64,000 bases of DNA, taken from Candidatus Helarchaeota archaeon (GTDB lineage: Archaea; Asgardarchaeota; Lokiarchaeia; Helarchaeales; RDOG01). The first letter of the stretch is position 1. Every line of letters begins with the position of its first letter. The notes beneath the pieces were generated by a model. That model was given only the letters and a program-made list of their open reading frames with translations. It was not told the DNA's origin and did no database searches. A program made the position numbers and the translations under genes. Below are positions 21,503 to 42,937 of the stretch, piece by piece. The stretch lies in assembly GCA_019058315.1 (NCBI GenBank), contig JAHPZH010000002.1:1069910-1133909 (forward strand), read 5' to 3'.

Positions 21503-22918
21503 TTAAACTATCGGAATCAAATTAATATTTGGATAATCTACTTCTAAAGCTAACGGATATTTAAAGTAAGGTTTTATTATTTCTAAAATAACACATCCAT
21601 CCATTCTTTCTAAGTTAAAATGATAATCACATTGATTTAACGAATATTGTAAAGCTTTTGAACCTTTTTTTATAAATAAAACATTTAAATTTCCCCCCAT
21701 ACGTGATACTTCTATGTTTTTCTCTTGAATTGGGATGTAGACATCAAGGGGATACTTGATTTCTAATGATCCAAGACTAGAAAAAAGTTGAATAATGTGT
21801 CCATCTGAAGAATTATCTATTAAATATCTTGCAGTTTCATTGTAAAGATTAATATCCAATTCTAAATTGCTACCATGAGTATATTTAATAAAAGGCTTTT
21901 CTATTTTAAAAAAATTATTTTCCTCTTTAAAAATTAAGACTTTTTTATTAAATACTTCTTCCGAGACTAATGGAACAAGATCATTAAAATATTTCATGGC
22001 ATATTCCTCCCCAGCTGGAGCTATTGTGCAAGTTCGCCCATGTTTCAGAAAATTTAGAATGGTTTGATAGACTAGAGTCTTTGGAAATATATCTGAAATC
22101 CCATCTCCTATCTCGAAAACGATAAAGGATCCCTTTCTATAACCCCCATTTAGAATATTATCTAATTGATGATTTCCTGTCGAGAAACAATCTCCAGAAT
22201 CTTCTATTTTTTGAAAACTACCCTGTTTAATTTTTGGATATAGGGGTTCGAAATTTCTGAATCTGCCGTTATTTAAAGTGAATATATATTCATGCTGAGC
22301 TACTTCTACGCCTCTAAGCTTTTCAATATGCATTTCTCGGATTCTTTTTTTTCGAGCCCTTTTTCCAAACCCTATACGTTTCAAAGTTATGATTCCATCC
22401 ACTATATAGTCTAAATAGGTTTCACTTTCTGTTTCCGTAACTAAAAATAATTTAATCTTCTTTTGTCGAACCATTTCACTTAGAAATGATTCTATTTTAC
22501 CCTCGATAATTGAGGATGATTGGGAATATTTAAGGAGTGTACTCCATGCGTCGATAACGACAAAGGGGTGTTCTAGATTTTTAGTTCTGTGATAGATGAC
22601 TTGTAAGAATTCAGGTAGATCTTTGAACCTAATAATTGATTCAAAGTATGTTTCTGTATCTGTTGAAATATAAGCTAGTTGAGTGATATCAAACATATTT
22701 TCTGGTTTAATTGCATCTTTTATCCAAGGAAACTGATGTTTTAAAGAAAGAGGGCTAACTCTAGTTGAGAAATATAGTGGATTTTCCGATCTAGAAAGTA
22801 ATTCCAAAACTAATGTAGTTTTACCAGAACCTGCTATACCTTTTACTAAAATCGAATACCCATAGGGTTTATTAATAGCCTCGACTAATTCTTTCGGAAT
22901 ATTATCCATACCTCTCAC
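21503..22918 (-). CDS. KaiC/RAD55-like ATPase, GvpD-type (active N-terminal domain, degenerate second domain)
   Basis: Walker A GIAGSGKT, VVIDAW, LDYIVDGII.L, IEKLRG; second RecA domain begins STGN..LD.IL.GG but lacks Walker A. Confidence 0.85.
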   Translation of the reverse strand: MRGMDNIPKELVEAINKPYGYSILVKGIAGSGKTTLVLELLSRSENPLYFSTRVSPLSLKHQFPWIKDAIKPENMFDITQLAYISTDTETYFESIIRFKDLPEFLQVIYHRTKNLEHPFVVIDAWSTLLKYSQSSSIIEGKIESFLSEMVRQKKIKLFLVTETESETYLDYIVDGIITLKRIGFGKRARKKRIREMHIEKLRGVEVAQHEYIFTLNNGRFRNFEPLYPKIKQGSFQKIEDSGDCFSTGNHQLDNILNGGYRKGSFIVFEIGDGISDIFPKTLVYQTILNFLKHGRTCTIAPAGEEYAMKYFNDLVPLVSEEVFNKKVLIFKEENNFFKIEKPFIKYTHGSNLELDINLYNETARYLIDNSSDGHIIQLFSSLGSLEIKYPLDVYIPIQEKNIEVSRMGGNLNVLFIKKGSKALQYSLNQCDYHFNLERMDGCVILEIIKPYFKYPLALEVDYPNINLIPIV

Positions 22919-23152: not shown

Positions 23153-23389
23153 ATGTTTCAAATAGAAGAAGCACCCACGGGCACCACTAAATGTGATTGG
23201 TGTGGGGAGCTTATTAAAAAAGGCACACTTAGACTAAGATTTGCCCCGCCAAAAGGTTACAATTATTATTGGCATCAAGATTGCGGGATAAAATATTTGG
23301 AAGGACTAAAAATTATGTTAAAAAATGGCGAAAAAGGTCATATTGGTCGAGAAGAAGCAGATAAAGCTCGGAAAGATGTGAGGTTATAA
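23153..23389 (+). CDS. Stand-alone PARP-type zinc finger protein
   Basis: EEAPTG..KCDWC..LIKKG.LRL...WHQDC matches the zf-PARP CxxC...HxxC pattern; SD GAGG upstream. Confidence 0.7.
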   Translation: MFQIEEAPTGTTKCDWCGELIKKGTLRLRFAPPKGYNYYWHQDCGIKYLEGLKIMLKNGEKGHIGREEADKARKDVRL

Positions 23390-23730: not shown

Positions 23731-25404
23731 TTGGATGAAATAAGTTTTTCTTCTGCTTTGAAAAAAATGAAAAAGGTTCGTATTATTCGTTTAAAAAGCA
23801 TTTTATTTGAATTATACGGTTTTGAAATGAATAAATATGAAGTAGCAAAAATTGTGGGAGTTACACCCCAAGCCATTGGACCAGAAATCGATTTTTTGGA
23901 GAATGTCGATCTTCTTAAGAAAACAAGGGTGGAGAAACGCAGAGGTCTTCCATCTTTTTATTATACATTAAATATTGAATCATTAATTGATAGTCTAAAT
24001 CTAGATAGCGATGAAAAAGGTATTTTAAAAGAGGGGCTTATTCGTCTTCAGAATGCTTACCGGCAATTAAAAAACTTGGAAAAAGACAGAAAAATTTCTA
24101 AGATAGAAAGCAGTTTGTATGAAGGAATAGTTCCAAATGACTATAAAATGTTTAATCTACAATTTATTAGTTCCATTTTAATAATTGCTGCACTTCTTTT
24201 CGATTTTGGATTTTCAATGCTACCTGATTTTCTTAAAAATAACCAACAATTGTTTTTTATTCTGCAAAATTATTCCAATGAATTACGAGATAACCTAAAA
24301 ATTGATGATCTGGATATGAATAACTGGATTAATGAAAATATCAAATCAATTAGTAATATTTACCAAAAAATTTGGAATGAGTTGATGCAGGCGATAGTAT
24401 TAAAATCAATTATTCAAGAGCCAAGTATGAAAATTATGGATAAGTTTGAAGAGACTAAGGAAGAAGATTTGAAGGTTAAGGTCGAAAAATTTCGAAATTA
24501 CAAAAAACAAAAGATAAAATTTAACGAAATTATTACAGAAGAAACAAATATTAAAAATAAATGTGATCAGAATTTAAGATCGACCGTTAATACCTTACTA
24601 GGGATTCAAAAGAAAGTATTAAAGGATAAAATAATTGGAAATAAATTAGATACTATTTATAATAAACTTTCATCTTTATCAACTAAATTAAAATCAACTT
24701 CTCTAGGAATGACATCATTTGGTACAGAAACAGAAAAAATCGAAGCAGTTAATATTAAAATTGCAATTCTTAAAGCATTAAATGAAGAAGTCGATGAATT
24801 AAAAGACCATTTAGCAAATATGGACCAATCAATTGACTATGGAAATTATGATGAAGTTGAAATACAAATAAAATCACTTTTTTCAATCACCCGAAATTTG
24901 GATAAATTTCAAAATTGGTATATAGATCCAAAAGAATTTCTTGAAAAACCTGCTGAAAAAACTAAAATTGATAAAAATGAATTGGATAATAAGATTTTAG
25001 CTTTAGTAAATAAAAATAAGCGTAATAATATAATTTTATTAAACGATTTTATTGCAGAATTTAGTTCAGCATATCCAAATTTTAGAATTACAAAGAACCA
25101 AATCGTCAAAGGAATACAAAGATTAAGTCAAAAATCAATTTATCCTCAAATTGAATCAATCAAATTGGAGAAGAAAAAAGAAAAGGTTATACGTTTGGAT
25201 TCGACAGATAAGGACCAAATTGAAATACTTCAAATTGCTAACGCTACAAATGGTAGGGTAACAATAGAAGGTCTACAACTACAATTAGATTGGCCTGTCT
25301 ATCGTGCAAAAGTTGTTTTGGAAGATTTAGTTAGTAACAATAAATTACATTTTAAAAGTACACGATCAGAGGGTGATGTGTATTATATTCCAGGAGTGTT
25401 ATAA
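23731..25404 (+). CDS. HTH DNA-binding domain + coiled coil + C-terminal ESCRT-II Vps22/Vps36 (EAP30)-like tandem winged helices
   Basis: N-terminus: MNKYEVAKIVGVTPQAI...L..V.LL...RRG.P..YY (ArsR/TrmB-like). C-terminus: DQIEILQIA..NGRVT...LQLQLDW...RAKVVLEDLV.......EG..YYIPG, which resembles the SNF8/Vps22 C-terminus. Confidence 0.8.
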   Translation: MDEISFSSALKKMKKVRIIRLKSILFELYGFEMNKYEVAKIVGVTPQAIGPEIDFLENVDLLKKTRVEKRRGLPSFYYTLNIESLIDSLNLDSDEKGILKEGLIRLQNAYRQLKNLEKDRKISKIESSLYEGIVPNDYKMFNLQFISSILIIAALLFDFGFSMLPDFLKNNQQLFFILQNYSNELRDNLKIDDLDMNNWINENIKSISNIYQKIWNELMQAIVLKSIIQEPSMKIMDKFEETKEEDLKVKVEKFRNYKKQKIKFNEIITEETNIKNKCDQNLRSTVNTLLGIQKKVLKDKIIGNKLDTIYNKLSSLSTKLKSTSLGMTSFGTETEKIEAVNIKIAILKALNEEVDELKDHLANMDQSIDYGNYDEVEIQIKSLFSITRNLDKFQNWYIDPKEFLEKPAEKTKIDKNELDNKILALVNKNKRNNIILLNDFIAEFSSAYPNFRITKNQIVKGIQRLSQKSIYPQIESIKLEKKKEKVIRLDSTDKDQIEILQIANATNGRVTIEGLQLQLDWPVYRAKVVLEDLVSNNKLHFKSTRSEGDVYYIPGVL

Positions 25405-25407
25405 AAA

Positions 25408-26115
25408 ATGAGTGATATGATAACTTGGGATTATGCAACTAATAAAGGCATAGTATATAGATGCCCTGTAGATAAGAAACATAAAGGATTTATTGTAAAA
25501 CAAGGTTTTGAGCAAGCTCTATGGATACGTAATGGAATTTTATATGATACGATTTCTGGAATTTCCTATAAATTTAAGAAAGGTGAAAAAGAGGGCAGTG
25601 AAATAATCTATGTAAAACTTGGAGATATTAAGATTAATTGGGGAATTCCTAAAAATAATGGTATAATCACAGTCGATGGAATAAAAATAGGCGGTCATGG
25701 AGATGTTATCGTTAAAATTTTAAATCCTGCAGATTTCGTATTTAATCTTGCAGGCTCAGTAGGTCAAGAATTTGTGGAATCAGTCGAAAAAGAAATATTC
25801 ATAAAAGGAGAGAAAAATAAGGAAAAAGTTCTTCGTAAAAAAGTGCAAAAAGACGAAATTGATGTTAAAGATGCGAAACGGGCATTAGAAGCTTTTTTAT
25901 TTACAAAAACTGATTTAAAAAATTGGCTAGTCAATGTTATTCGTAGTTCTCTACGTGACAAACTTTCAAAATTAACATTAAATGAACTTCTAAAAGTTGA
26001 CATAAGTGAAGTTGAAAGAGATTTACGTATAAAAAATACAGATGTATTTCAAAGTTGGGGTTTGGAGCTTAAATCTTTTAGTATAATCGGATGGCAATTA
26101 CCAAATAATTTCTGA
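25408..26115 (+). CDS. SPFH/Band-7 domain protein (YdjI/virion-core type, no TM)
   Basis: IVKQ..QALW.RNG, IKINWG, G.HG...VKI.NP..FV.NL.G, F.SWGLELKSFSI. Confidence 0.8.
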   Translation: MSDMITWDYATNKGIVYRCPVDKKHKGFIVKQGFEQALWIRNGILYDTISGISYKFKKGEKEGSEIIYVKLGDIKINWGIPKNNGIITVDGIKIGGHGDVIVKILNPADFVFNLAGSVGQEFVESVEKEIFIKGEKNKEKVLRKKVQKDEIDVKDAKRALEAFLFTKTDLKNWLVNVIRSSLRDKLSKLTLNELLKVDISEVERDLRIKNTDVFQSWGLELKSFSIIGWQLPNNF

Positions 26116-26117
26116 CG

Positions 26118-28478
26118 ATGATTTATATGAGTAATAACCCAGAAATTAAATATGACGGAGTTCTTTATTATCTTCCATTATATGAAGATGAAATCGTAAG
26201 AAATATAGTCAGTGCGGATAAACGAGTCAAAAGACGTAAGGATCTTGATGGCTATATCATTTTAACAAATTACAGATTTATCTTCATGGAAAGGAAAAAA
26301 GATTTAGAATATCACCTTTCAAGCTTTTTCTATTATAAAGATATTGAAAATATTAGACTTGGTGGAGTTGTCAATAAATTTATACAAATTAATGGTGTTC
26401 TATTTCATCCAAAGGATGTTTCAGTAGATTACTTAAGAAGTTCAATTAATAAATTCACAATAGAAGCAAAAAAACAAATCTTTTCATTTGAGCCAATGCC
26501 AGAAGAAGAACCCTTTCCTGAAGTTGAAATCAGCGATAAAAATATGTTTAATAAAGTTACAAACCTCTTCATTTCGATTTTTTCAACAATAATTGGACTT
26601 TTTTTAGTATTAAACTCTGCTTTATCTTTTTATTTTGGACCACATGCTTATTTGCCATTTGTAACCTCTATATTAGGAGTCGTTTTCTCTTCAATTATAA
26701 TGGGTGTCATAAATCATGAGAATAATAAAGATAATTTTTCAGAGGAATATTTTGATTCGCTAAAAAACACACTTTACTTTTCTATTTTAAGTCTTACATT
26801 TACTAGTGTAGGTTTGGGGCTTGATGGTCACTATGGACTGGCATTCAATTTATTTAGTATTAGATACAACTCCGCTCTCCTGATATTCGTCGTTTATTTA
26901 ACAATTGGAGTTCTTCTAATGTTTAAAAATGGAATTAATTTCTCAAATTTATTTAACGAGCCAGAGAATCCATATAATGAATTTAATAATAGAATTTTTG
27001 AAGAATTTGAATCTGAGAAGTTTCAAAACCGATCAAAAATGATATTTATTGTTTTTATCACTTTAATTGCAATACAAATGTTAATTTTAATCCTTTACAA
27101 CTTATTTCCTGGTGGCGGTATATATTTGGTCTTTTCATGGACTTTCTCTCAAACCCCAGCTCCCTTGGATGTTAGAAGTATCATTCCTGGTAATAGCTAT
27201 TATCTATTTAATCCTCTATTTTCAGGTGCAACAATTGTCGTTGGAATTTTTGGATTAATTTTAACTGCAATTATTCAAGCTCGAAATATTGGATATTTAA
27301 GATATTATTCTCTAGATATTTACAACACACTAAAAAACCGAGTTAGAGACAAAACCAATAGAATGAAATTGTTAAAAGAAAGAATTTTAAATAAAACACA
27401 AAATATTCTTAAACAAATGCATGCAGCTGTTACAGGAGTTGCAGAAAAGTCTATCCCAATAACGGAACAAGAAAGACGAATACCTATTGAAGTAAATGAT
27501 CAGAAAAAAATTGAAAAAATACATGTCGTGCCAAATTCAACAAATTCGAACTCTTTAATAAATCAAGTATCTGTTCAAGATAAATCTACTGAAATTCCAA
27601 TTATGGTAACTAAAGAAGAAGAAATCCCAATACCCGAAATAAAAAAACAAGAGCTCGTAGAGAGGATTATCGGAAAAATTGAAGTAAAACGTGGGGGACT
27701 AATAAAAGGAAGTGAATATTTATATAAAGTAAAAGTGGAAAATTTGTCTAATTCAGTAATCACCGATTTAAGAATCATAATAACTTCATATCCCGATGAT
27801 AGCTTAAAAATTGTAGGTTCAGAATTGCAAAAAAGATCAAAATTAACTCCTGGTGAAATGGTTTCCCCGTCTTTTACATTTCGGCCTACTGAAGATTGTA
27901 TTGTCGGAAAAATTAATTCAATTGTAACGTATTTAGATGCAAGAGGTGAATCACAACAAATAAGCATAGAACCTCTTATTATACGCTTTATTTGCGGTCT
28001 TTTAACTCCCCTTCCCATTAAAGCAGAAGAATTTGATCAAATAGTCAAAAAATTATTAAATTATTCGAATGCTGGGGAAGAGCTCGAATTGCCTCATAGC
28101 GCAAAGAGTATTTATGAAAAAGCAAAAGTATTATTGCCACAAAATAACTTTTATCTTATTTCCGCGGAGGATCATGAGGTTGCTTCTAATTTTATTGGTA
28201 TATTAAAAGGATTTGCTGCAGGACAATATTCTCATAAAAAAGTGGGTACACAAATAACTGTTACAGGTAAAAAAAATGAGAATTTTTGTGCTGCTCGAAT
28301 AGATGGATATACAGAAGATGCATCCATGTTAACACCTCTAATTTCGGAGCTAAAAAATGATATAAGAAGCTGGAATTGTGAGCAATGTGGAGCGCAATTA
28401 AGTGATACTCAAATTAAGAAAATATTAGATGGTAAAATTGTTCGATGTAAATATTGTGATGAGATATTAAAAATATAA
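26118..28478 (+). CDS. PH/GRAM-like domain + ~6 TM + adaptin/COP appendage-like domain + zinc ribbon
   Basis: GYIILTNYRFIF (PH/GRAM); TM block at about aa 147-390; KVKVEN.S...ITDL...KLTPGE...VTYLD..G (Ig sandwich) then LLTPLPI..EEF (platform); CEQC...CKYC. Confidence 0.75.
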   Translation: MIYMSNNPEIKYDGVLYYLPLYEDEIVRNIVSADKRVKRRKDLDGYIILTNYRFIFMERKKDLEYHLSSFFYYKDIENIRLGGVVNKFIQINGVLFHPKDVSVDYLRSSINKFTIEAKKQIFSFEPMPEEEPFPEVEISDKNMFNKVTNLFISIFSTIIGLFLVLNSALSFYFGPHAYLPFVTSILGVVFSSIIMGVINHENNKDNFSEEYFDSLKNTLYFSILSLTFTSVGLGLDGHYGLAFNLFSIRYNSALLIFVVYLTIGVLLMFKNGINFSNLFNEPENPYNEFNNRIFEEFESEKFQNRSKMIFIVFITLIAIQMLILILYNLFPGGGIYLVFSWTFSQTPAPLDVRSIIPGNSYYLFNPLFSGATIVVGIFGLILTAIIQARNIGYLRYYSLDIYNTLKNRVRDKTNRMKLLKERILNKTQNILKQMHAAVTGVAEKSIPITEQERRIPIEVNDQKKIEKIHVVPNSTNSNSLINQVSVQDKSTEIPIMVTKEEEIPIPEIKKQELVERIIGKIEVKRGGLIKGSEYLYKVKVENLSNSVITDLRIIITSYPDDSLKIVGSELQKRSKLTPGEMVSPSFTFRPTEDCIVGKINSIVTYLDARGESQQISIEPLIIRFICGLLTPLPIKAEEFDQIVKKLLNYSNAGEELELPHSAKSIYEKAKVLLPQNNFYLISAEDHEVASNFIGILKGFAAGQYSHKKVGTQITVTGKKNENFCAARIDGYTEDASMLTPLISELKNDIRSWNCEQCGAQLSDTQIKKILDGKIVRCKYCDEILKI

Positions 28479-28485
28479 AAATTCT

Positions 28486-30414
28486 TTATACTGGTAAACT
28501 TAAAGGTTCATAATCCTCAATTTTTTTCTGCTTTTTTTTCGTTTTGGTTATTTTTTTAGCCCGTTTTGTTTTTTTGACCTTTTTTATTTTTTTCTTTTTA
28601 ATTTTTCCTGTCTTTTTCTTTTTTTTAGTCTTTTTACTTATTTTCTTTTTACTTTTTATGACTTTTTTTGCTTTTTTAACCTTTTTAACCTTTATTTTCT
28701 TTGGTTTAGGTTTTTCAAAAGTTTTTTCTACCTTTTTCCCAATCGGCTTCGGAATTGGTTCAATTTCTATAGGTTCTTCTATTTTTTCAACCTTTAGCTC
28801 TTTTACTTTTTTAATTTTTTTATTTTTTTTAGCTTTTTTCTTTTTGATCTTTTTTATTTTTTTTGCTTTTTTAGCTTTTTTAACCTTAATTTTCTTTGGT
28901 TTAGGTTTTTCAATAATTTTTTCTACCTTTTTCTCAATTGGTTTCGGGATTGGTTCAATTTCTATGGGTTCTTCTATTTTTTCAACCTTTAGCTCTTTTA
29001 CTTTTTTAATTTTTTTAGCTTTTTTCTTTTTGATCTTCTTTATTTTTTTTGCTTTTTTAGCTTTTTTAACCTTAATTTTCTTTGGTTTAGGTTTTTCAAT
29101 AATTTTTTCTACCTTTTTCTCAATTGGTTTCGGGATTGGTTCAATTTCTATGGGTTCTTCTATTTTTTCAACCTTTAGCTCTTTTACTTTTTTAATTTTT
29201 TTAGCTTTTTTACCCTTCTTTATCCTTTTTACCTTTGGTTTTTTGATTTTCCTTATTTTTTTAGCTTTTTTCTTTTTGATCTTCTTTATTTTTTTAGCTT
29301 TTTTAGCCTTTTTAGCTTTAATTTTCTTCGGTTTAGGTTTTTCAATAATTTTTTCTACCTTTTTCTCAATAGGTTTCGGGATTGGTTCAATTTCTATGGG
29401 TTCTTCTATTTTTTCAACCTTTAGCTCTTCTACTTTCTTGATCTTTTTTATCTTTTTTATTTTTGGCTTTTTACGTTTCTTTACCTTTTTAATTTTTTTC
29501 TTTTTAACTTTTTTAACCTTTTTCTTCTTTATTTTTTTAACTTTTTTTGGTTTTGGCTTTACTTTTTTTACCTTTTTAACTTTAACCTTCTTTAATTTAG
29601 GTTTCTTAATCTCAACTTCTATAGGTTCTTCCTCGATTTTAATAGGAGGTTTGATTACTTCAGGAGGTGTTATAACTGGTTTAGTTATAGATTTTGAAAT
29701 TGGTTTAGTAATAAGTTTGGTTATGGGTTTGCTTACAGGTTTGGTTATTGGTCTTGTTACGGGTTTGATATTTGGTTTGGTTATAGGTTTAGTTACAGGT
29801 TTAGTTATGGATTTTGTTACGGGTTTAATAATTGGTTTGGTTATAGGTTCAGTTATGGGTTTTATTACGGGTTTAATAATTGGTTTGGTTATGGGCTTGG
29901 TTACAGGTTTAGTTATGGGTTTAGCAATTATTTTTTCTTTTATAATTTGTGTTGGTTCTGTATCAATGGGTGAACTTAATATCTCCTCCTCAAATTCTGA
30001 TGGATGAGTTAATTCTTCTACAATTTTATGAATTGATGCTGTCATTTCTAATTCAAGCATACCTTCTTCTTCATCAGATACTGGTTCAACAGTAGTTGTT
30101 AATTTTGGTTCTACAGTAGTTGTAACTTCTGGTTCTACAGTAGTTGTAACTTCTGGTTCTATAGTAGTTGTAATTTCTGGTTCTACAGTAGTTATAGAAG
30201 GTTCTACTTTCAAAGGGTCTTTAACGATTTCTAAAGTTGGTAATGGAGTCAAGAAGAAAATAAATTTTTCAGGACAATAATTTTCATGAATATTTAGAAA
30301 TTCTCTTCTAATTTTTTTGAAGGTTTGAACCATTTCTAACCTATGTAAAGTATAATCCGATCGAAATGCAAAATCAGAACCCTTTACTTCTCTAAACTTT
30401 ATCTCTTCCTTCAT
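28486..30414 (-). CDS. Low-complexity protein with Thr/Pro repeats and a histone-H1-like Lys-rich repeat region
   Basis: 642-aa ORF; EPEVTTTV and KP(I/V)T repeats, then about 370 aa dominated by K/I/A/V/E/P. Confidence 0.8.
   Translation of the reverse strand: MKEEIKFREVKGSDFAFRSDYTLHRLEMVQTFKKIRREFLNIHENYCPEKFIFFLTPLPTLEIVKDPLKVEPSITTVEPEITTTIEPEVTTTVEPEVTTTVEPKLTTTVEPVSDEEEGMLELEMTASIHKIVEELTHPSEFEEEILSSPIDTEPTQIIKEKIIAKPITKPVTKPITKPIIKPVIKPITEPITKPIIKPVTKSITKPVTKPITKPNIKPVTRPITKPVSKPITKLITKPISKSITKPVITPPEVIKPPIKIEEEPIEVEIKKPKLKKVKVKKVKKVKPKPKKVKKIKKKKVKKVKKKKIKKVKKRKKPKIKKIKKIKKVEELKVEKIEEPIEIEPIPKPIEKKVEKIIEKPKPKKIKAKKAKKAKKIKKIKKKKAKKIRKIKKPKVKRIKKGKKAKKIKKVKELKVEKIEEPIEIEPIPKPIEKKVEKIIEKPKPKKIKVKKAKKAKKIKKIKKKKAKKIKKVKELKVEKIEEPIEIEPIPKPIEKKVEKIIEKPKPKKIKVKKAKKAKKIKKIKKKKAKKNKKIKKVKELKVEKIEEPIEIEPIPKPIGKKVEKTFEKPKPKKIKVKKVKKAKKVIKSKKKISKKTKKKKKTGKIKKKKIKKVKKTKRAKKITKTKKKQKKIEDYEPLSLPV
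28690..29440 (-). repeat. Four near-identical coding repeats (ELKVEKIEEPIEIEPIPKPIEKKVEKIIEKPKPKKIK plus K-rich spacer)
   Basis: cctttagctc recurs at 28791, 28986, 29172 and 29418 (periods 195, 186, 246 bp). Confidence 0.9.
29670..29925 (-). repeat. 12-bp-period coding repeat KP(I/V)T, about 20 copies
   Basis: Repeated ggtttagttat/ggtttggttat units; protein KPITKPVTKPIT... Confidence 0.85.
30080..30200 (-). repeat. 24-bp-period coding repeat EPEVTTTV, about 5 copies
   Basis: Repeated tagttgtaacttctggttcta units. Confidence 0.85.
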
Positions 30415-35443: not shown

Positions 35444-38400
35444 TTGATTTATATGAATGGTAGTGTTAACTTAATAAAAAGGTGCTCTTTTAGGAAAAGG
35501 GCTGCATTAATGATTACTTTGTTTTTAATGATAACTAATTTTATTATCCCCATTGTTATAGAATCAAGCAAAAATTCGGAAAACTATGTTCAAGATTTTA
35601 TTAATCTCGATAATTTTAATACTCCTAAAAAAAAGAATCCAATTACAGACCCAAATATACCTCTGAAGACTTTAAGTAATGGGGAATTTACAGGATATGG
35701 AAATAATAGATCAGTTACTGCATTTTTTGACAGTTACGGTTCTACTAATGGGAATAGCACTAATTTAGAAATTGATACAAATGGATGGGACTTTTCGGCT
35801 ATAAATTTTACAATTGATCAACTTACAGCCTACAACCATACTAAAATTCTTGAGGATCAAGCCAGCTTCTCTTATGATGTAGCAACTGACCTATATTTAA
35901 TGTCTTTTAACATTTCGCAAGATGCTAATTTAACAAAAATAAGTTTTCTATTAAGAAGTCAAGCAGATAACACGACAATCTTTATATATTCTGCAAATGC
36001 AAGTTTAGCTCCCGATTCAGTTCTCTATAAAATAAATACCAGTGGATTTGATGCTGGATTAGGAAGCGGAACTTGGATTAATTTTACACTAACAGAAAAT
36101 AATTCCTTACAGCTTAGTCAAACAAATAATGGAACTTTTTTTATTGGTATTAATAGAACAGTCTCTACTTTACAATGGAGAGGTGAAAATGATGGAGTTG
36201 ATGGAGGAAAAGTATTTCGACAAGTAGGGATCGTTTGGGAAGAAGATCCAGGTATAGATTTAACATTAAAATTAAAATTTACTCCTTTAAATGAGACACC
36301 AAATCCAACTGATGTTAATTTAAGGATAAATGGACAAAGCGTGCTAAATAATTTCACATGGAAAAATAATTCGCGGTTAAATGCTACGGGATCTGCTGTT
36401 ATTTTCGATATAGATTCCTCATGGGGCAATTTAACTTATAGAGCAAATTGGACCGCTAATTTAATTCAAAATTTAAATGGAATAACAAATTTTTCTGCTA
36501 ACGCGACTCAAAATATCGTGAACTGGAATATATCTATTTCAAATTTAGATTTTGGAGCAATATCTTCAAACAAACAAATTAATGTAAGTTTACCAATAAG
36601 CTGGAATATTAGCACAGTATTTAGAGATTCGACTCCATATGGAAATTTTGATAATGTAACAGAAAATAATTTAAAAATATTAAGGATTTTTGACCCACCA
36701 AATTCGAGTTGGAATATTGGTGCAGAATCTCAAAATTATATTACTTCAATAAAATTATATAAAGGGAGTAATGAAGTAAATTCTTCTATAATGTTCGAAC
36801 AAATTACCGTAAATGGTTCTTTAAAGAACAAATGCTTTGATACTTCAAACTTAACAATAATACTTGGTGGAGTGGAGAAGAATACAACTATTCTTACCCC
36901 TAATGAAAATATCTCAATTGATGTGGTACTCAATGATAGTTTCGGGATTGTAACAAATGGAAATTACACTTTTAGATTGACATTCAATAATGGAACCGAT
37001 GTTGGTTTAAATCAGACATATCTTTATGTTTTAAATAAAACTTATTTGAATGATATTTCTCCAGAAGCGCAAAGAACAATATATTATTCTGGTGCAATAC
37101 TAAATATTACAGTTAATTTCACCATGTCTTATTGGGATGGTTTAAACTTTACCGAACAACCAATTGATAATCTAAGCGGCGGTAATATAACTTATAATCT
37201 GCCTGAAATCACCGGAAATAATTGGATACCACTTAATTTTAATCCTACGAAGAAGATTTGGACAATAACGATTTTATTAAACATGGATATTGGTAAATAT
37301 ACCATTTATGTTAATGCATCAAAGAATGGTGCTGAGTACCAATCTTTTTCTAGAACTATAGAAATAATTTATTTTAACGGTACCATTAAAGGGAATGGTG
37401 ATCAACGACCAATAATAATTCAAGGTTATGAGAATGGTACATATCTATTCGGGGATGAATCAGAAATTCAATTACCTGTTCATGGTCATAATTTGACTTA
37501 CGCAAATTTTACAATATTTAATTTATCTTCAATTAATAAGAAAATTCTTGAAACCAATATTAATTTTAATTCATATAATATCACAGAAAAGACATATGCG
37601 ATGAAATTTAATATTAGCGCACCATCGTTCATTACAAAAATTGGATTTCATCTTTATATAAATCATGCTACATTTACACAATTAACGAATTTAAATGTTT
37701 ATTTATGGAATGCTTCATGGACTGGTTCTCGTATTGAACCGGATAAAATAATATGGAATAATATAAATAACTTGGCTACTATTGGCCCACTTAATCAAAA
37801 AATATTCGAACTTAATATTCCCAATTTATTTTTAGATACCATTCTAACTAGCAATAATTCTTATTTTTTGACTCTTAACGGCACACCAGTAGGTTTACCC
37901 AACTTATCACCTAACTGGCTTTATACTAATGATAGTATAGACGGTATTAATAATGGTGAAGCCTATAACTTTACTGGAGGAAGTTGGACACTTCTTGATA
38001 AAGACTTTTGGATGAATGTAACTTTAATTGAATTTAAAAATGCTTCTCAACTTTCTTTAAATATTTCTAATATTCCCGTTTCTGATAATCCAAATTTAAA
38101 ATATTCTGGATTCTGGGAGTCCAGCAATACATTTCTTGCTGATTTAACTGGTAATGTAAGCCTTTCTGTCCAAGCAAATGAATCTGATATCAGTTATATT
38201 ATCAATTATACAATTATATATGAGAATAGTTCCGTTGACTCACTAACTAAATATTCTTTTAATGTTACTAAAAATGTTATTAAGTGGAATGTTAGCTTTA
38301 TTGCTGGTTTACCCGATAATGCATTCAACGGATCTATTAATATTACCTATCCAAAATCATGGAATGCCTCTTTAATTTATACACCAAATAAACTGAATTA

Positions 38401-41400
38401 TACCAACACAGAAATACTAAATTTGGGTAATTTAAAATTACTTCTGATAAAAAATATTAATTCTTCATACAATGGTAGTTGGAATTTAATATTTTATAGC
38501 AATAAAGTTATTAGTAATATTTGGATTTGGAACAATACGGGTGGGGGCTATCAGCAAGTCAATAACGCATATATAACTAATACTATTAAAATTAATGCTA
38601 CAGTTACAAATGCTATAAATGGTTGGGGAAACATTTCTATATTCAATTCAAAAGATACTTTGAATAATTTGATATCTTTAACTTCTCCTACACAAAATAG
38701 TGATTATGATTTTTCAGACTATACATTAATGGACAACCTAACGACTGATGGAAATTGTACGGTATTATTTTTATGGAGTAATGGAACTGAAGTATCAGCA
38801 GAACTGGAATTTCTTTATGTCCGAAATGTGAGTTCACTCGTTATAATTTCGCCAGAATCCCCGGAATTGCAAGGAAACTTAATTGAAGGAATTAAAGGTA
38901 GCACTTTTAATTTGACTCTATATTTTAATATGTCATATTGGGATAGTGGTTGGACTTCTGTAGCTATAAATGATTCACCTTCAACTTTAGTCTCTTATCA
39001 AACAAATAGTTTGGATATTGCAAATCCAACATCTGGGAATCTAACCTTTATCGGTAACGGAACGTGGACAAAGATATTTAATGTGCCTACAGTAAATGCA
39101 TCATATTACCTCTTTATTAATGCAAGCGGTGAAAACATTCGCGCAAGCAGTAGAAATTTTACTATAATTGTGTCTAATAGTTCTAATTTGGAATTAATAC
39201 CGCCTATACAATCAGTCTTTTGGGGTGAAAACGTGACTTTCTCCCTTAATTATACTGATCAAATTAGTGGCTCCCCAATTATTGGTGCAAATATAACTGA
39301 AGTTAATTATACAATATTTAGTTTAGCGCAATCGGGGTTGTTTTTAGAGAATATCAATTATACTACAACTTCACAAAACGGAATTTATAATATCACAATA
39401 ATTTCTAGAACACTTTTGAATTATACTTATAATATAACATTTAAAATTAATATAATCGGCTTCCAGACTCAATCACAAACTGGAACTTTATTTGTAAACA
39501 ACCGTTCAACAACATTAACACTCGTATTAGCACCAATACCCATTTTTCTAGGTGATAATGTTAGTTTTGTAATATTCTACGAAGATACAATTAACAATTC
39601 TGGAATTTCAGATGCAATAATTATGACAAATGCTTCAACATTGCTTGATTTTACGTTGAGCCAAGTAGCTGGTGAGCCAGGGAATTATAGTATAAATTTG
39701 GATTCTAGTAATTTCAATAATATAGGTACATTTTTAATAGAGTTTAATGCGTCTAAAAATCTCTATGATATTGCTTATCTAAATGTTTTTGTTCAAGTTT
39801 CTTTGTTTTATACAAATCTAACTCCAATTTCTGGAGTTAATGGAACAATATATGATTGGAATATCAGTGTTATGTTGAATTCTTCTCATAAAGTTCAAGT
39901 AAAATACTTAAATTTATGGGATAATAGCCCTGTTGAGGATGCTTTGATCGATGCTTATTTGGAAGACACACTATTATCTACTTCACAGCTAGGAAATGGA
40001 AACTATTCGATTACTTTAGATGCATCAGTAATTTCAAATCCTGACATCAATGAGAATTATACATTAAATGTAACTATGTATAAAACTGGATATGAAACCC
40101 AAACGATCAATATTACAGTTAAATTCGTCCCATTAACAACAATTTTAACCCCTATTCAAGATTATATTAATGCATCTCACAATGATGTAATTTCCATCGA
40201 TGTTATTCTAACTAATATTAATTTGGAAAATATTGCACCTAGTTTTGGGATAATTACTTATAATATTACTAATTCAAGTGGGGGGTATTACAAAAATGGG
40301 ACTCTGAATTATCAAACTGGATATTATACTGGTTCAGTTCAACTCTTATCAACCGAACTGGCAAATGGAACTTATGATATTATTGTCAATTTTAGCTCAA
40401 ATTATAATTTCTATTTGAATTCATCATGTACTATAGCATTAAATTTCTCTGTGGAAACACCCATAATTCCAACAGTAATAGAATTCGTAAATCTACCAAC
40501 GATTGTAAATGAGTCCAGTTATGTTGATATTATTATTAATGTAACAAATGCGCAAAAAACAGAGACGATACCATTCGGATTAGTCGAAATAACAATAATA
40601 GCTTCATTCGGGGATGGTTCAACTCAAACTAATATTATAAATACAAATACGAGTGCCTCAGGAGATGCCAATATATCCTATTTCGTCCCATACGAATCCA
40701 TCTCAATAAGTATAACTGCTAATTATTACGGCTCATCTCAATTTGAACAATCTTCGAATTCAACTAGTATTTTAGTTGTTCGTCAAAAAATAGATTTAAC
40801 TCTATTGTTATTGCCACCATTATTTGTTCCAGAAGGATTGCCATTATTTATAACTGGTCAAATTAAAACTACAAATGGCACTGTTCTAAATGGAACCATT
40901 GTTTTAAGCATATCTATCGCTTTATCAATCTCTTCATTACCCATATTACATACATTTAGTATTAATTTTACTCCGTCTTCAGATGGATTATTTATATTCA
41001 TCCTACCCATTCCTGAAAATATTTTTTCAGTATCAGTTTCAGCAACTTACTATGGAACAAGGGGATATAAAGTCGAAGCTTCTCCAAGAGCTGTTGCAAT
41101 ATTAAATGAACTTGAATATTTTATTCGTGAAAACTTCTTTTTACTTTTAATAATTTTCTTAATTATTGCACTAGTTATTATTGGGATAGTAACTTACTTT
41201 AAAGCTATCAGACCAAAAACAGAACCATTAACTGCAAAAAAGAAGAGGCTTATGAGTCAAAGAATGGAAACGACTAAAGAACTAGCTAAAATAACCAAAG
41301 AATTAGATAAATTGAGAAGCGATACCTTGATACAAGCACAGAAAGCAGAAAGAGATGGATTATATGAAGAAGCTGCAAAAGCTTATGAGAAGGTGGGTAA

Positions 41401-42937
41401 TCTCTCATTGGAATTAGCAGAGAAAAGTATAGCAAAAGATTACTTTGCAAGATCTAGAGTGTTACTGAAGAAAGTCGCTAAAGACGAATTAATCTCCAAG
41501 AGAGAACAGGAGAGAAAAGAACTTATTGAATCAGCACGTATGGCATTAAGAGAAAGAAAAGTTCTAGAAGCTTCTAAATATTATTCGAAGATTGTATCAA
41601 TTTCTATACAATTAGGCGATCTAGAAACCGCACAGAAGTTCTCTAACTTAATGGCCTCCACCGAAGACCAACTTAAATTGTTAAAAGACCAAGAATTAAG
41701 AACAGAATTAAAAGATATTCTCCAAAAAGCTGATAAGGCAATGGGTAAACAAAAATTCGATGCAGCAGCGAAATACTTCGAAGAGGCTTCTCGTTTATTA
41801 TTACTCCTTGATGAGCCAGAAGGTGTAAGAAAGTTTTCTAGTTGGGCTAAACTTTCACGAGAACGTCAAGAATTATTTTCTGAAGAAGTAACGGATTGGA
41901 AAGCTGATTTAAATAAAATTATAGATGAAACTGAAAAAGTTGTGGAAAAGAAAAAGGAGGAAGCAGACTACGACCAAGTTATTTTAAATCTGCTTAAAAT
42001 TGCAATTTATTATTTAGAACTTGAAGATGAAAATAAATTTAGAGAATATCGTCAAATGGCCAAAAGTTATTCTGATAAGCTGAAAATATTTAGAACCGAT
42101 AGAAGGGCAGATATAGAATCAGAAAAACTTAAGATTCTGCAAAAAGCAGAGCAGGCAGAATCTAAAAATGATTTTAAAAATGCAGCGGAATTATATGAAA
42201 AAGCAGCAAAATTGGCAATTGATCTCGGAGATCGCTATGAAGGAAGGTCAATTATGGAAAAGGCACAAATACTTTTTAAACAAGCAAAGAAATGGGCTGA
42301 AAGTGAAAAAATAGAAGAATTAATGAAACCAATTAAACCTGCTCCAAAAGAAATTTCTAAGCCTCCTAAACCTAGACTTATGACTGAATTACCTAAACCT
42401 AAACCAATTAAACCCTTAATTGAAAGAATTAAACCTACAGAACTTCCTGAAATAAAAGTGATATCTGAACCAATTGAACCAGAAAAAATCATTACAAAAC
42501 CAATTGTTGAAAAACCAATTCCTAAAGTGATTCCTAAAGAACCACTACCCACAATAGAAGAACAAAAAATTAAGAATATTCGAAATCAGATAGATAAATT
42601 ACATACTCTAGTTTTTGACTGTCAAAAAAATAATAGAATTAATACAGCCATTCATTATTATAAACAAGCATCCATTTTAGCTAATCAAATCAACGATAAA
42701 CGATTGGCTGACTCTTATTTTCTTAAAATAGAGGAATTAAAAGTTTCAAAGCCTAAAAAGATTGAATCAAGGGATAGATTGCAAAAATTAATGGAATCTT
42801 CTGAGAATCATATAAGGCAGAAAAAGTTTGCTAAGGCAATTGAAGAATTAAAAGATATTGCAGAAATATTTTTCTCACAGGGTGATGAAGAAGCGGGAAT
42901 TGATTTTTTGGATAGAATTAAAGAAATTCAAGAATAA
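35444..42937 (+). CDS. Giant single-pass surface protein: glycosylated Ig-like ectodomain, TM, cytoplasmic TPR/SNAP-like repeats
   Basis: N-terminal hydrophobic anchor, about 1850 aa beta-rich region dense in NxS/T, TM at about 41134-41200, about 7 A...E....Y..AA..Y helical repeats and a Pro-rich linker. Confidence 0.85.
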   Translation: MIYMNGSVNLIKRCSFRKRAALMITLFLMITNFIIPIVIESSKNSENYVQDFINLDNFNTPKKKNPITDPNIPLKTLSNGEFTGYGNNRSVTAFFDSYGSTNGNSTNLEIDTNGWDFSAINFTIDQLTAYNHTKILEDQASFSYDVATDLYLMSFNISQDANLTKISFLLRSQADNTTIFIYSANASLAPDSVLYKINTSGFDAGLGSGTWINFTLTENNSLQLSQTNNGTFFIGINRTVSTLQWRGENDGVDGGKVFRQVGIVWEEDPGIDLTLKLKFTPLNETPNPTDVNLRINGQSVLNNFTWKNNSRLNATGSAVIFDIDSSWGNLTYRANWTANLIQNLNGITNFSANATQNIVNWNISISNLDFGAISSNKQINVSLPISWNISTVFRDSTPYGNFDNVTENNLKILRIFDPPNSSWNIGAESQNYITSIKLYKGSNEVNSSIMFEQITVNGSLKNKCFDTSNLTIILGGVEKNTTILTPNENISIDVVLNDSFGIVTNGNYTFRLTFNNGTDVGLNQTYLYVLNKTYLNDISPEAQRTIYYSGAILNITVNFTMSYWDGLNFTEQPIDNLSGGNITYNLPEITGNNWIPLNFNPTKKIWTITILLNMDIGKYTIYVNASKNGAEYQSFSRTIEIIYFNGTIKGNGDQRPIIIQGYENGTYLFGDESEIQLPVHGHNLTYANFTIFNLSSINKKILETNINFNSYNITEKTYAMKFNISAPSFITKIGFHLYINHATFTQLTNLNVYLWNASWTGSRIEPDKIIWNNINNLATIGPLNQKIFELNIPNLFLDTILTSNNSYFLTLNGTPVGLPNLSPNWLYTNDSIDGINNGEAYNFTGGSWTLLDKDFWMNVTLIEFKNASQLSLNISNIPVSDNPNLKYSGFWESSNTFLADLTGNVSLSVQANESDISYIINYTIIYENSSVDSLTKYSFNVTKNVIKWNVSFIAGLPDNAFNGSINITYPKSWNASLIYTPNKLNYTNTEILNLGNLKLLLIKNINSSYNGSWNLIFYSNKVISNIWIWNNTGGGYQQVNNAYITNTIKINATVTNAINGWGNISIFNSKDTLNNLISLTSPTQNSDYDFSDYTLMDNLTTDGNCTVLFLWSNGTEVSAELEFLYVRNVSSLVIISPESPELQGNLIEGIKGSTFNLTLYFNMSYWDSGWTSVAINDSPSTLVSYQTNSLDIANPTSGNLTFIGNGTWTKIFNVPTVNASYYLFINASGENIRASSRNFTIIVSNSSNLELIPPIQSVFWGENVTFSLNYTDQISGSPIIGANITEVNYTIFSLAQSGLFLENINYTTTSQNGIYNITIISRTLLNYTYNITFKINIIGFQTQSQTGTLFVNNRSTTLTLVLAPIPIFLGDNVSFVIFYEDTINNSGISDAIIMTNASTLLDFTLSQVAGEPGNYSINLDSSNFNNIGTFLIEFNASKNLYDIAYLNVFVQVSLFYTNLTPISGVNGTIYDWNISVMLNSSHKVQVKYLNLWDNSPVEDALIDAYLEDTLLSTSQLGNGNYSITLDASVISNPDINENYTLNVTMYKTGYETQTINITVKFVPLTTILTPIQDYINASHNDVISIDVILTNINLENIAPSFGIITYNITNSSGGYYKNGTLNYQTGYYTGSVQLLSTELANGTYDIIVNFSSNYNFYLNSSCTIALNFSVETPIIPTVIEFVNLPTIVNESSYVDIIINVTNAQKTETIPFGLVEITIIASFGDGSTQTNIINTNTSASGDANISYFVPYESISISITANYYGSSQFEQSSNSTSILVVRQKIDLTLLLLPPLFVPEGLPLFITGQIKTTNGTVLNGTIVLSISIALSISSLPILHTFSINFTPSSDGLFIFILPIPENIFSVSVSATYYGTRGYKVEASPRAVAILNELEYFIRENFFLLLIIFLIIALVIIGIVTYFKAIRPKTEPLTAKKKRLMSQRMETTKELAKITKELDKLRSDTLIQAQKAERDGLYEEAAKAYEKVGNLSLELAEKSIAKDYFARSRVLLKKVAKDELISKREQERKELIESARMALRERKVLEASKYYSKIVSISIQLGDLETAQKFSNLMASTEDQLKLLKDQELRTELKDILQKADKAMGKQKFDAAAKYFEEASRLLLLLDEPEGVRKFSSWAKLSRERQELFSEEVTDWKADLNKIIDETEKVVEKKKEEADYDQVILNLLKIAIYYLELEDENKFREYRQMAKSYSDKLKIFRTDRRADIESEKLKILQKAEQAESKNDFKNAAELYEKAAKLAIDLGDRYEGRSIMEKAQILFKQAKKWAESEKIEELMKPIKPAPKEISKPPKPRLMTELPKPKPIKPLIERIKPTELPEIKVISEPIEPEKIITKPIVEKPIPKVIPKEPLPTIEEQKIKNIRNQIDKLHTLVFDCQKNNRINTAIHYYKQASILANQINDKRLADSYFLKIEELKVSKPKKIESRDRLQKLMESSENHIRQKKFAKAIEELKDIAEIFFSQGDEEAGIDFLDRIKEIQE

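Follow-up and report, generated by a model that had tools for sequence, protein, structure and literature searches.

Can a homologue of a subunit of ESCRT-II (endosomal sorting complex II required for transport), a flotillin-type scaffold and a coat-adaptor ear act together at a membrane when an archaeon encodes them side by side? The question is raised by three adjacent genes in a 64,000-nucleotide stretch of DNA from a Candidatus Helarchaeota archaeon (C5:1069910-1133909 of a 5.79 Mb genome of 12 contigs that is 94% complete, genome code G000; the whole stretch is referred to here as the window). Of all known organisms, Asgard archaea are the nearest relatives of eukaryotes, and this operon and a more widespread gene pair described below give a concrete and testable case of how the trafficking modules of eukaryotes may first have cooperated. 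The genes, referred to here as genes 1, 2 and 3, are transcribed in the same direction with spacers of 3 and 2 nucleotides, exactly as claimed by a first-pass annotation made from the DNA letters alone (Table 1). We find that they form a conserved operon of one Helarchaeota family, with the three proteins composed as set out below; since one operon encodes an ESCRT-II subunit homologue, a flotillin-type scaffold and a coat-adaptor ear, the three probably work together. We put at about one half the probability that the trio assembles at the membrane and links its SPFH and appendage modules to Vps25 and ESCRT-III for remodelling, sorting or repair.

The ESCRT component is the C-terminal part of the gene 1 product, which the first-pass annotation had likened to Vps22 and for which both profile and structure comparisons indicate a Vps22/EAP30-like unit and not a generic winged helix. 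The Pfam EAP30 profile (PF04157) matches residues 417-537 with an E value of 8.6e-6 and 26.1 bits relative to a cut-off of 26.8 (hmmscan), covering only positions 91-213 of its 219, and exceeds the cut-off in a six-frame search (27.2 bits). A local hidden Markov model (HMM) built from ten canonical Asgard Vps22 proteins of about 245 residues matches over nearly its entire length (HMM positions 19-239 of 242 against gene 1 residues 338-556; E 3.3e-17), and an hhalign comparison with canonical Asgard Vps22 gives 98.7% probability (E 3.8e-16) across 162 columns, reaching the C-terminal ...SEGDVYYIPG motif. In an AlphaFold2 (AF2) model the Vps22-like unit is predicted with a per-residue confidence (pLDDT) of about 88; Foldseek ranks 1-7 for the winged helices are all Vps22 or Vps36 chains (3cuq_A, E 4.2e-5), and a VIA comparison aligns 141 residues with human VPS36 (2zme_B; Z 13.7, root-mean-square deviation (rmsd) 3.4). 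From these matches we read gene 1 as containing a whole Vps22 unit behind 337 extra N-terminal residues. The similarity to canonical Vps22/EAP30 (PF04157; asCOG cog.002769) takes in the C-terminal signature S-x-G-[ED]-x-[WY]-[YF]-[IF]-P-G, and the modelled tandem winged helices superpose on ESCRT-II structures; unlike canonical Vps22, gene 1 is more than twice as long, has a predicted membrane anchor and adjoins an SPFH gene instead of Vps23, Vps28 or Vps25. In a tree of the winged-helix region the gene 1 family is a 100/99 clade on a long branch. Direct BLASTP comparison of the gene 1 C terminus with a 176-residue EAP30 protein encoded on contig C3 of the same genome yielded no alignment, and the relation between these two is visible only through profiles.

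The added N-terminal portion has two features. Eight orthologues of gene 1 were found, every one from Helarchaeota-type metagenome-assembled genomes (MAGs), and these support the TTG start: their sequences open with MDE... at that very position, and D2, F6 and L10 do not vary among them. A profile of the N-terminal 135 residues matches the ArsR-type winged helix-turn-helix (wHTH) regulator PH1932 (1uly) at residues 22-114 (E 6.5e-4), and in the orthologue alignment this is the best-conserved part of the protein; a Pfam search gave no HTH match in gene 1, and the AF2 model has a pLDDT of 30-50 across the region. An N-terminal wHTH is likely from these comparisons. The second feature is a hydrophobic segment, with a Kyte-Doolittle window above 1.6 at residue 138 and a modelled helix over residues 138-156, in which or close to which F141, L143, Q144, I146, S147, S148, L150, I151, L155, D158 and P165 are invariant; we suggest that residues 138-165 are probably a membrane anchor. 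The first-pass annotation had described gene 1 as an HTH, a coiled coil and a Vps22-like C terminus, a layout that stands except that this conserved helix was overlooked. The middle of the protein, residues 166-404, is helical in the model, of which 258-404 resemble four-helix bundles generally and are not diagnostic.

An alternative explanation for this architecture is that gene 1 encodes a membrane-tethered one-component regulator similar to ToxR or CadC, with a cytoplasmic ArsR-type wHTH, one transmembrane helix and a C terminus that senses or oligomerises; the SPFH and six-helix membrane proteins would feed it signals about the state of the membrane, it would control its own operon, and ESCRT-III would be uninvolved. 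The match to an ArsR-type regulator, the placement of one strongly conserved hydrophobic helix about 25 residues past the matched region, and the conservation of the wHTH above all other parts of gene 1 are consistent with this, as is a 483-residue homologue in genome G049 that by eye appears to begin with a wHTH-like stretch. A Bacillus SPFH operon is reported to couple membrane stress to a regulatory outcome (PMC13713150). However, the match to a wHTH is only marginal, no hydrophobic helix is present in the other Vps22-like proteins linked to SPFH, and upstream of gene 1 there is no convincing operator palindrome, with AT-rich low-complexity inverted repeats only. Moreover, the last 220 residues share homology with an ESCRT-II subunit that is cytoplasmic, and an extracytoplasmic location for such a unit would be unprecedented. 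We regard a tethered regulator as unlikely.

Gene 2 encodes a minimal SPFH protein. The Band_7 profile (PF01145) scores 29.3 bits (cut-off 23.6), a local Asgard SPFH HMM matches with an E value of 1.8e-30, and BLASTP against a 342-residue SPFH protein of the same genome (E 2e-12) aligns the whole domain save for a gap of about 42 residues that corresponds to a charged insertion in gene 2. No hydrophobic segment was found in a window scan, in agreement with the description of gene 2 as a Band-7 protein lacking a transmembrane helix, and PDB sequences gave no match. The further label of 'YdjI-type' is weak, the score to Band_7_1 (PF13421) being 17.0 bits relative to a cut-off of 24. The protein stops directly after the SPFH domain at residue 235, has no C-terminal coiled coil, and so has no long helix of the type used for ring and basket assembly.

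The gene 3 product is a polytopic membrane protein for which we obtained an AF2 model with mean pLDDT 82, using a 97-row alignment drawn from the best 150 of the 626 cluster representatives that a profile of the C-terminal 287 residues retrieved; the database copy of this protein starts three codons downstream and is 783 residues long. At its N terminus the model has a PH-like fold, a seven-stranded sandwich with strands at 27-98 and a capping helix at 103-119, and VIA comparison of residues 12-121 gives Z 13.8 to the TBC1D23 PH domain, 13.2 to the Lam6 PH-like domain, 12.2 to the MTMR2 GRAM-PH domain, 11.3 to the EAP45 GLUE domain and 11.0 to the Vps36 PH domain, a range that agrees with the proposed PH/GRAM-like domain and from which no PH subtype is assignable. 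Helices follow at 141-171, 175-199, 209-235, 252-276, 299-329 and from 361 onward, and a long helix reaches residue 438; hydrophobic windows agree with these, and there are six predicted transmembrane helices where about six had been claimed. With an even number of membrane passages both ends of the protein would be on the same side, and we predict that this is the cytoplasmic side from the zinc ribbon and the lack of a signal peptide.

Beyond a disordered linker of 70 residues, the C-terminal half of the gene 3 model contains an adaptin/COPI appendage, as the first-pass annotation had anticipated; it is predicted with pLDDT above 90, and its Ig and platform subdomains are matched as one unit. 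Foldseek ranks 1-14 are alpha-adaptin, beta2-adaptin and COPI appendages (1w80_A, E 5.9e-8), and in VIA the COPI appendage 9qpq_H scores Z 15.4 with 224 residues aligned, alpha-adaptin about Z 14 and beta2-adaptin Z 13.5 (rmsd 4.0), the alignments of 207-224 residues spanning model residues 518-754. The two-subdomain fold of the model is thus that of the AP2 alpha- and beta2-adaptin and COPI beta and gamma ears (Z 13.5-15.4), and it appears to be attached, as those are, through a disordered hinge. Unlike those ears, the gene 3 domain is only 9-13% identical in sequence and matches no Pfam appendage family (Alpha_adaptinC2, Alpha_adaptin_C and B2-adapt-app_C give nothing at E <1), and where the ears sit on a HEAT-repeat trunk it is carried by a polytopic membrane protein and is followed by a zinc ribbon. 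The only related Pfam match is a weak one to TRAP_beta (E 0.019), and a language-model search retrieved eukaryotic appendage clusters at 0.76 only, which we take as a lead and no more. The zinc ribbon, also as described initially, is a C-terminal CxxC...CxxC in which C754, C757, C777 and C780 are nearly invariant in the 97-row alignment; Pfam zinc-ribbon matches are weak. The PH-like, transmembrane and appendage assignments all hold on a confident predicted model.

The appendage and zinc-ribbon module is not peculiar to gene 3. The 626 cluster representatives, 156 of them at E <1e-30, have it as the C-terminal tail of proteins of 264-2867 residues, usually straight after the last transmembrane helix and sometimes in tandem, with C594 and C626 of the Ig part invariant; named members are from Thorarchaeota and Helarchaeota, and strong matches are present in 7 of 61 Asgard species sampled. 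Membrane proteins with a predicted cytoplasmic appendage and zinc-ribbon tail thus seem to make up a large Asgard class that has apparently not been described before. Two full paralogues of the module are encoded elsewhere in the genome (C3:1427340-1428197 and C1:266551-267414), neither with an SPFH neighbour.

To what extent do the three genes belong together? In a set of 5.8 billion clusters each protein has only some 8-11 close relatives, and Helarchaeota-type MAGs are the source of every one. In two loci of close relatives (L006 and L008) the trio is kept, but the flanking genes are kept too (those for a KaiC/GvpD-like ATPase, GATase, HGSNAT and radical SAM proteins), and its conservation there is uninformative; this shared synteny is what would be expected if the three were chance neighbours with no joint function. 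However, the trio also persists at 34-50% identity with different flanks in L010/L011, L007 and L045 of genome G301 (34-36% identity for gene 1), the gaps between the genes are only 2-3 nucleotides, and the same types of component recur in other gene orders in other families. We consider chance proximity extremely unlikely, and co-occurrence of the three genes in other genomes, as the first-pass annotation proposed, is well illustrated by the divergent loci. Partial versions occur as well: in G301 a paralogous copy of genes 1 and 2 is followed by a gene for a large secreted protein (L046), and in L012 a paralogous SPFH gene precedes one for a soluble 719-residue protein with the Ig part and zinc ribbon of a gene 3-type tail. 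A search of five further genomes from the order found no gene 2 orthologue, and full-length gene 1 was found in none of 300 other Asgard species representatives; the trio in its exact form is thus restricted to a single family.

The association of an SPFH gene with a Vps22 homologue extends further. An SPFH profile was run against 101 Asgard genomes and the neighbouring genes of the 30 top-scoring loci were inspected; in 12 of these a Vps22-like open reading frame (ORF) lies directly upstream on the same strand, in five families (f1, f4, f8, f19 and f25). By contrast, canonical Vps22 had no SPFH neighbour in any of eight loci examined in other Asgards, where it follows a recurring set of small co-directional genes. 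A second locus of this genome, on the reverse strand of contig C3 (C3:248952-251811; L024:4953-7812), pairs the two components in the order 166-residue helical protein, 342-residue SPFH protein (Band_7 E 1.7e-18), 176-residue EAP30 protein (33.3 bits) and 245-residue multi-zinc-ribbon protein (DZR E 5.6e-14). The Vps22 profile match extends upstream of the 176-residue ORF through two TAA stops, and the N-terminal part may thus be truncated. The 166-residue protein was considered as a PspA or ESCRT-III homologue, for which a PDB sequence search and the ESM Atlas gave no support.

Other lineages have different additions to this pair. In the Lokiarchaeia-class genome G040 (contig C36, L058:3452-8912), genes for a 350-residue Vps22-like and a 401-residue SPFH protein are directly downstream of those for ThiF-type E1, JAB and UFC1-like E2 proteins, which ties the pair to a ubiquitin-like modification cluster. 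In G041 (L096) the pair is preceded by a 495-residue protein that weakly matches the zinc ribbon and the end of the platform (hhalign 65%), and in G049 (L057) the pair is followed by two proteins with a helix and zinc-ribbon tail (hhalign 74.5%); in some lineages, then, the pair is joined by a protein with what these comparisons indicate is a weakly related platform-helix and zinc-ribbon tail (65-75%). We conclude that the operon in the window is a lineage-specific elaboration of an Asgard-wide 'Vps22-like then SPFH' pair, and that what is special to it is the hydrophobic helix in gene 1 together with the PH domain and six-helix body of gene 3.

Where, then, are the ESCRT partners that a Vps22 homologue would be expected to engage? 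A canonical ESCRT cluster is present on contig C10, with Vps25, Vps4, three Snf7-family genes, a UEV/E2-like gene and an E1-ubiquitin fusion. A full-length canonical Vps22 of about 245 residues was not found in G000 or in G301, the one family relative searched (both genomes being 94% complete), by either the EAP30 or the Vps22 profile, which returned partial or fused matches only; four other genomes of the class have Vps22 proteins of 240-247 residues with scores of 45-83 bits. Vps25 is present in both G000 and G301, and this is consequently a lineage of interest in which Vps25 persists and canonical Vps22 is not found. If the family has no canonical Vps22, either gene 1 or the 176-residue Vps22-like protein encoded on C3 may be the working Vps22. 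A more extreme version, which we think doubtful, is that soluble canonical Vps22 was lost and the ESCRT-II role passed to SPFH-coupled paralogues, with gene 1 becoming membrane-anchored and, along with its partner bearing the PH domain and ear, forming a prokaryotic device for selecting cargo or sites that brings Vps25 and ESCRT-III to SPFH-marked patches; in that case ESCRT, flotillin-like and coat-adaptor modules would act as one machine in a close relative of eukaryotes.

These observations suggest how the trio could work. The three proteins would assemble on the cytoplasmic face of the membrane, where the SPFH protein, which has no transmembrane helix of its own, may be held by gene 3 and by gene 1 through its hydrophobic helix, as SamG and SamH (YdjG and YdjH) hold SamI (YdjI) in Bacillus. 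The SPFH protein would organise a membrane patch, the appendage and PH domains would bind cargo, lipid or accessory proteins, and the tandem winged helices of gene 1 could recruit Vps25, which would in turn bring in the ESCRT-III and Vps4 proteins of the other contig, the outcome being local membrane remodelling, sorting or repair. We infer this functional model from gene neighbourhood and two published parallels, and likewise infer the order of assembly, any self-regulation through the HTH and the stress, repair or sorting role. Complex predictions for gene 1 residues 395-557 and gene 3 residues 500-786 with gene 2 gave 0.18 and 0.27, relative to a mark of 0.32 and with no controls.

One of the parallels is the pspA-ydjGHI (samGHI) operon of Bacillus subtilis. 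There, as here, an SPFH protein without a transmembrane helix is co-encoded with membrane proteins that could hold it and is linked to a component of the ESCRT superfamily. YdjG, moreover, carries a zinc ribbon. The partner in Bacillus is PspA, of the ESCRT-III superfamily, whereas here it is Vps22-like, of ESCRT-II, and there is no PspA gene in either the operon or the window; in addition, gene 2 is below the Band_7_1 cut-off, and we saw no homology of gene 1 or gene 3 to YdjG or YdjH. In Bacillus, membrane proteins are reported to recruit the cytosolic SPFH protein SamI (PMC13713150).

The second parallel is closer, and is the closest published system: the 'Meth_adaptin' ESCRT loci of methanogens (Methanosalsum, Methanococcoides). 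As described by Makarova et al. (2024, mBio; PMC10936438), these contain Vps4, ESCRT-III, the SPFH protein arCOG15283 and the TRAP-beta appendage arCOG15284, and in Methanococcoides arCOG15283 is followed by arCOG15284 so that the SPFH gene adjoins the adaptin appendage gene. Similarly, genes 2 and 3 are 2 nucleotides apart, gene 3 encodes an Ig and platform appendage, and its weak Pfam TRAP_beta match fits the published 'TRAP-beta' label; one methanogen appendage protein has a zinc ribbon, another joins a second domain through a transmembrane linker, and both systems have a contextual tie to ESCRT components. In contrast to the methanogen loci, the operon in the window lacks Vps4, ESCRT-III, ProX and GOLD, its ESCRT part is a homologue of Vps22 to which a wHTH and a hydrophobic helix are fused, its SPFH protein has neither coiled coil nor zinc ribbon, and its appendage protein has a PH-like domain and six transmembrane helices. 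This comparison is one of gene content and published descriptions.

The same paper bears on the novelty of the operon, which had been presented as a candidate for a new type. The contextual link of ESCRT, SPFH and an appendage with a zinc ribbon is published for methanogens, multidomain ESCRT-related proteins bearing appendages are reported for Asgards, and diversification of ESCRT-II is extensive in Lokiarchaeia and Helarchaeia (PMC10936438); to call the operon new was therefore an overstatement, although the portions of the supplement examined contain no SPFH entry among Asgard neighbourhoods. What is of interest here is the recurrent pairing of a Vps22 paralogue with SPFH in Asgards, the putative membrane-anchored Vps22 fusion and the apparent lack of canonical Vps22 in the family.

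It could instead be that the operon encodes an SPFH scaffold or quality-control platform that is independent of ESCRT, its winged helices and appendage being generic adaptors for lineage-specific clients. SPFH proteins have many ESCRT-independent roles (bioRxiv 10.1101/2025.11.06.686947), the operon is not linked to ESCRT-III, Vps4 or Vps25, and the appendage and zinc-ribbon tail is reused on hundreds of unrelated Asgard membrane proteins, including the two paralogues in this genome that have no SPFH neighbour. Generic adaptors do not readily account for the specific pairing of SPFH with a Vps22 paralogue in five Asgard families, for the position of the pair beside ubiquitin-system genes in G040, or for the retention of Vps25 where canonical Vps22 is missing; SPFH and appendage proteins are also within Vps4/ESCRT-III loci in the methanogens (PMC10936438). 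We regard an ESCRT-independent platform as rather unlikely.

Several points weigh against the reading that we prefer, in which the trio couples an SPFH patch to Vps25 and ESCRT-III. The main caveat is topological: gene 1 has just one hydrophobic helix, and if this is a single-pass transmembrane segment the wHTH and the Vps22-like unit would be on opposite sides of the membrane, such that only a re-entrant or peripheral helix would save the recruitment of ESCRT. Gene 2 is without the long helix at the C terminus on which basket formation by SPFH proteins depends (bioRxiv 10.1101/2025.11.06.686947). The Pfam EAP30 score of gene 1 is right at the threshold, the tandem winged helices of SelB also align to it in VIA (Z 10.4), and the tree leaves undecided whether gene 1 descends from SPFH-linked Vps22 paralogues, since a single clade of gene 1 and all SPFH-linked proteins is neither shown nor rejected (approximately unbiased test, p-AU 0.28). 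The window contains no Vps25, ESCRT-III, Vps4 or ubiquitin gene, as the first-pass annotation had stated, the ESCRT cluster being on C10 and the window on C5; and the two genomes in which canonical Vps22 was not found are of MAG type and incomplete.

The operon offers a candidate explanation of how ESCRT-II could reach membranes in archaea without Vps36 and its GLUE domain. If the proteins do not interact, the operon would be one more case of patchy domain shuffling among Asgard ESCRT-related genes.

Table 1. Positions of the operon genes, their predicted parts and the Vps25 gene. Residues are those of the encoded protein; coordinates are those of the window unless a contig is given.
Feature	Residues	Coordinates	Strand	Description and basis
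Gene 1	557 aa	23731-25404	+	ORF, TTG start; likely wHTH, hydrophobic helix, helical region and Vps22-like unit
Gene 1, wHTH	22-114	23794..24072	+	Likely ArsR-like winged helix-turn-helix; profile match to PH1932 (1uly)
Gene 1, hydrophobic segment	138-165	24142..24225	+	Conserved, probable anchor; Kyte-Doolittle, alignment, AF2 helix
Gene 1, Vps22 unit	338-557	24742..25401	+	Complete Asgard Vps22 (EAP30) unit; tandem winged helices at residues 413-557
Gene 2	235 aa	25408-26115	+	ORF; minimal SPFH domain without transmembrane helix
Gene 3	786 aa	26118-28478	+	ORF; polytopic membrane protein
Gene 3, PH-like domain	12-121	26151..26480	+	Predicted PH/GRAM-like domain; VIA
Gene 3, membrane body	141-385	26538..27272	+	Six predicted transmembrane helices; AF2 model and hydrophobic windows
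Gene 3, linker	441-511	27438..27650	+	Predicted disordered linker, hinge analogue; pLDDT <50
Gene 3, appendage	518-751	27669..28370	+	Predicted adaptin/COPI appendage; Ig sandwich 521-631, platform 636-750
Gene 3, zinc ribbon	752-786	28371..28475	+	C4 zinc ribbon, CxxC...CxxC
Vps25		C10:106607-107437		Part of the ESCRT cluster on contig C10

The surroundings of the operon contain further ORFs. Upstream and divergent is a gene for a KaiC/GvpD-like P-loop ATPase at 21503-22918 on the reverse strand (GvpD_P-loop, E 1.5e-16), which is kept at this position in the close relatives only (L006 and L008) and is absent from the divergent locus L010. Between it and gene 1 is a 78-residue ORF at 23153-23389 on the forward strand with a weak zf-PARP match (E 9.7e-4; 20.3 bits relative to a cut-off of 39.3). 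Both were considered as members of the operon and rejected because they are absent from divergent loci. A palindrome at the TATA box was also considered as an operator for gene 1 and was unsupported, the upstream repeats being AT-rich and of low complexity. A search of sequencing runs for the locus returned no RNA set and recovered DNA contigs from sediment metagenomes only, and NCBIfam gave nothing useful for any of the three genes. Downstream and convergent on gene 3 is a 642-residue ORF at 28486-30414 on the reverse strand with no Pfam match; AT skew is extreme around it (-0.41 over 28001-30000), and a 487-residue forward-strand ORF that overlaps it is probably a repeat artefact. Further downstream, the forward-strand ORF at 35444-42937 encodes 2497 residues, and a counterpart of 2501 residues adjoins the same neighbourhood in the relative L008.

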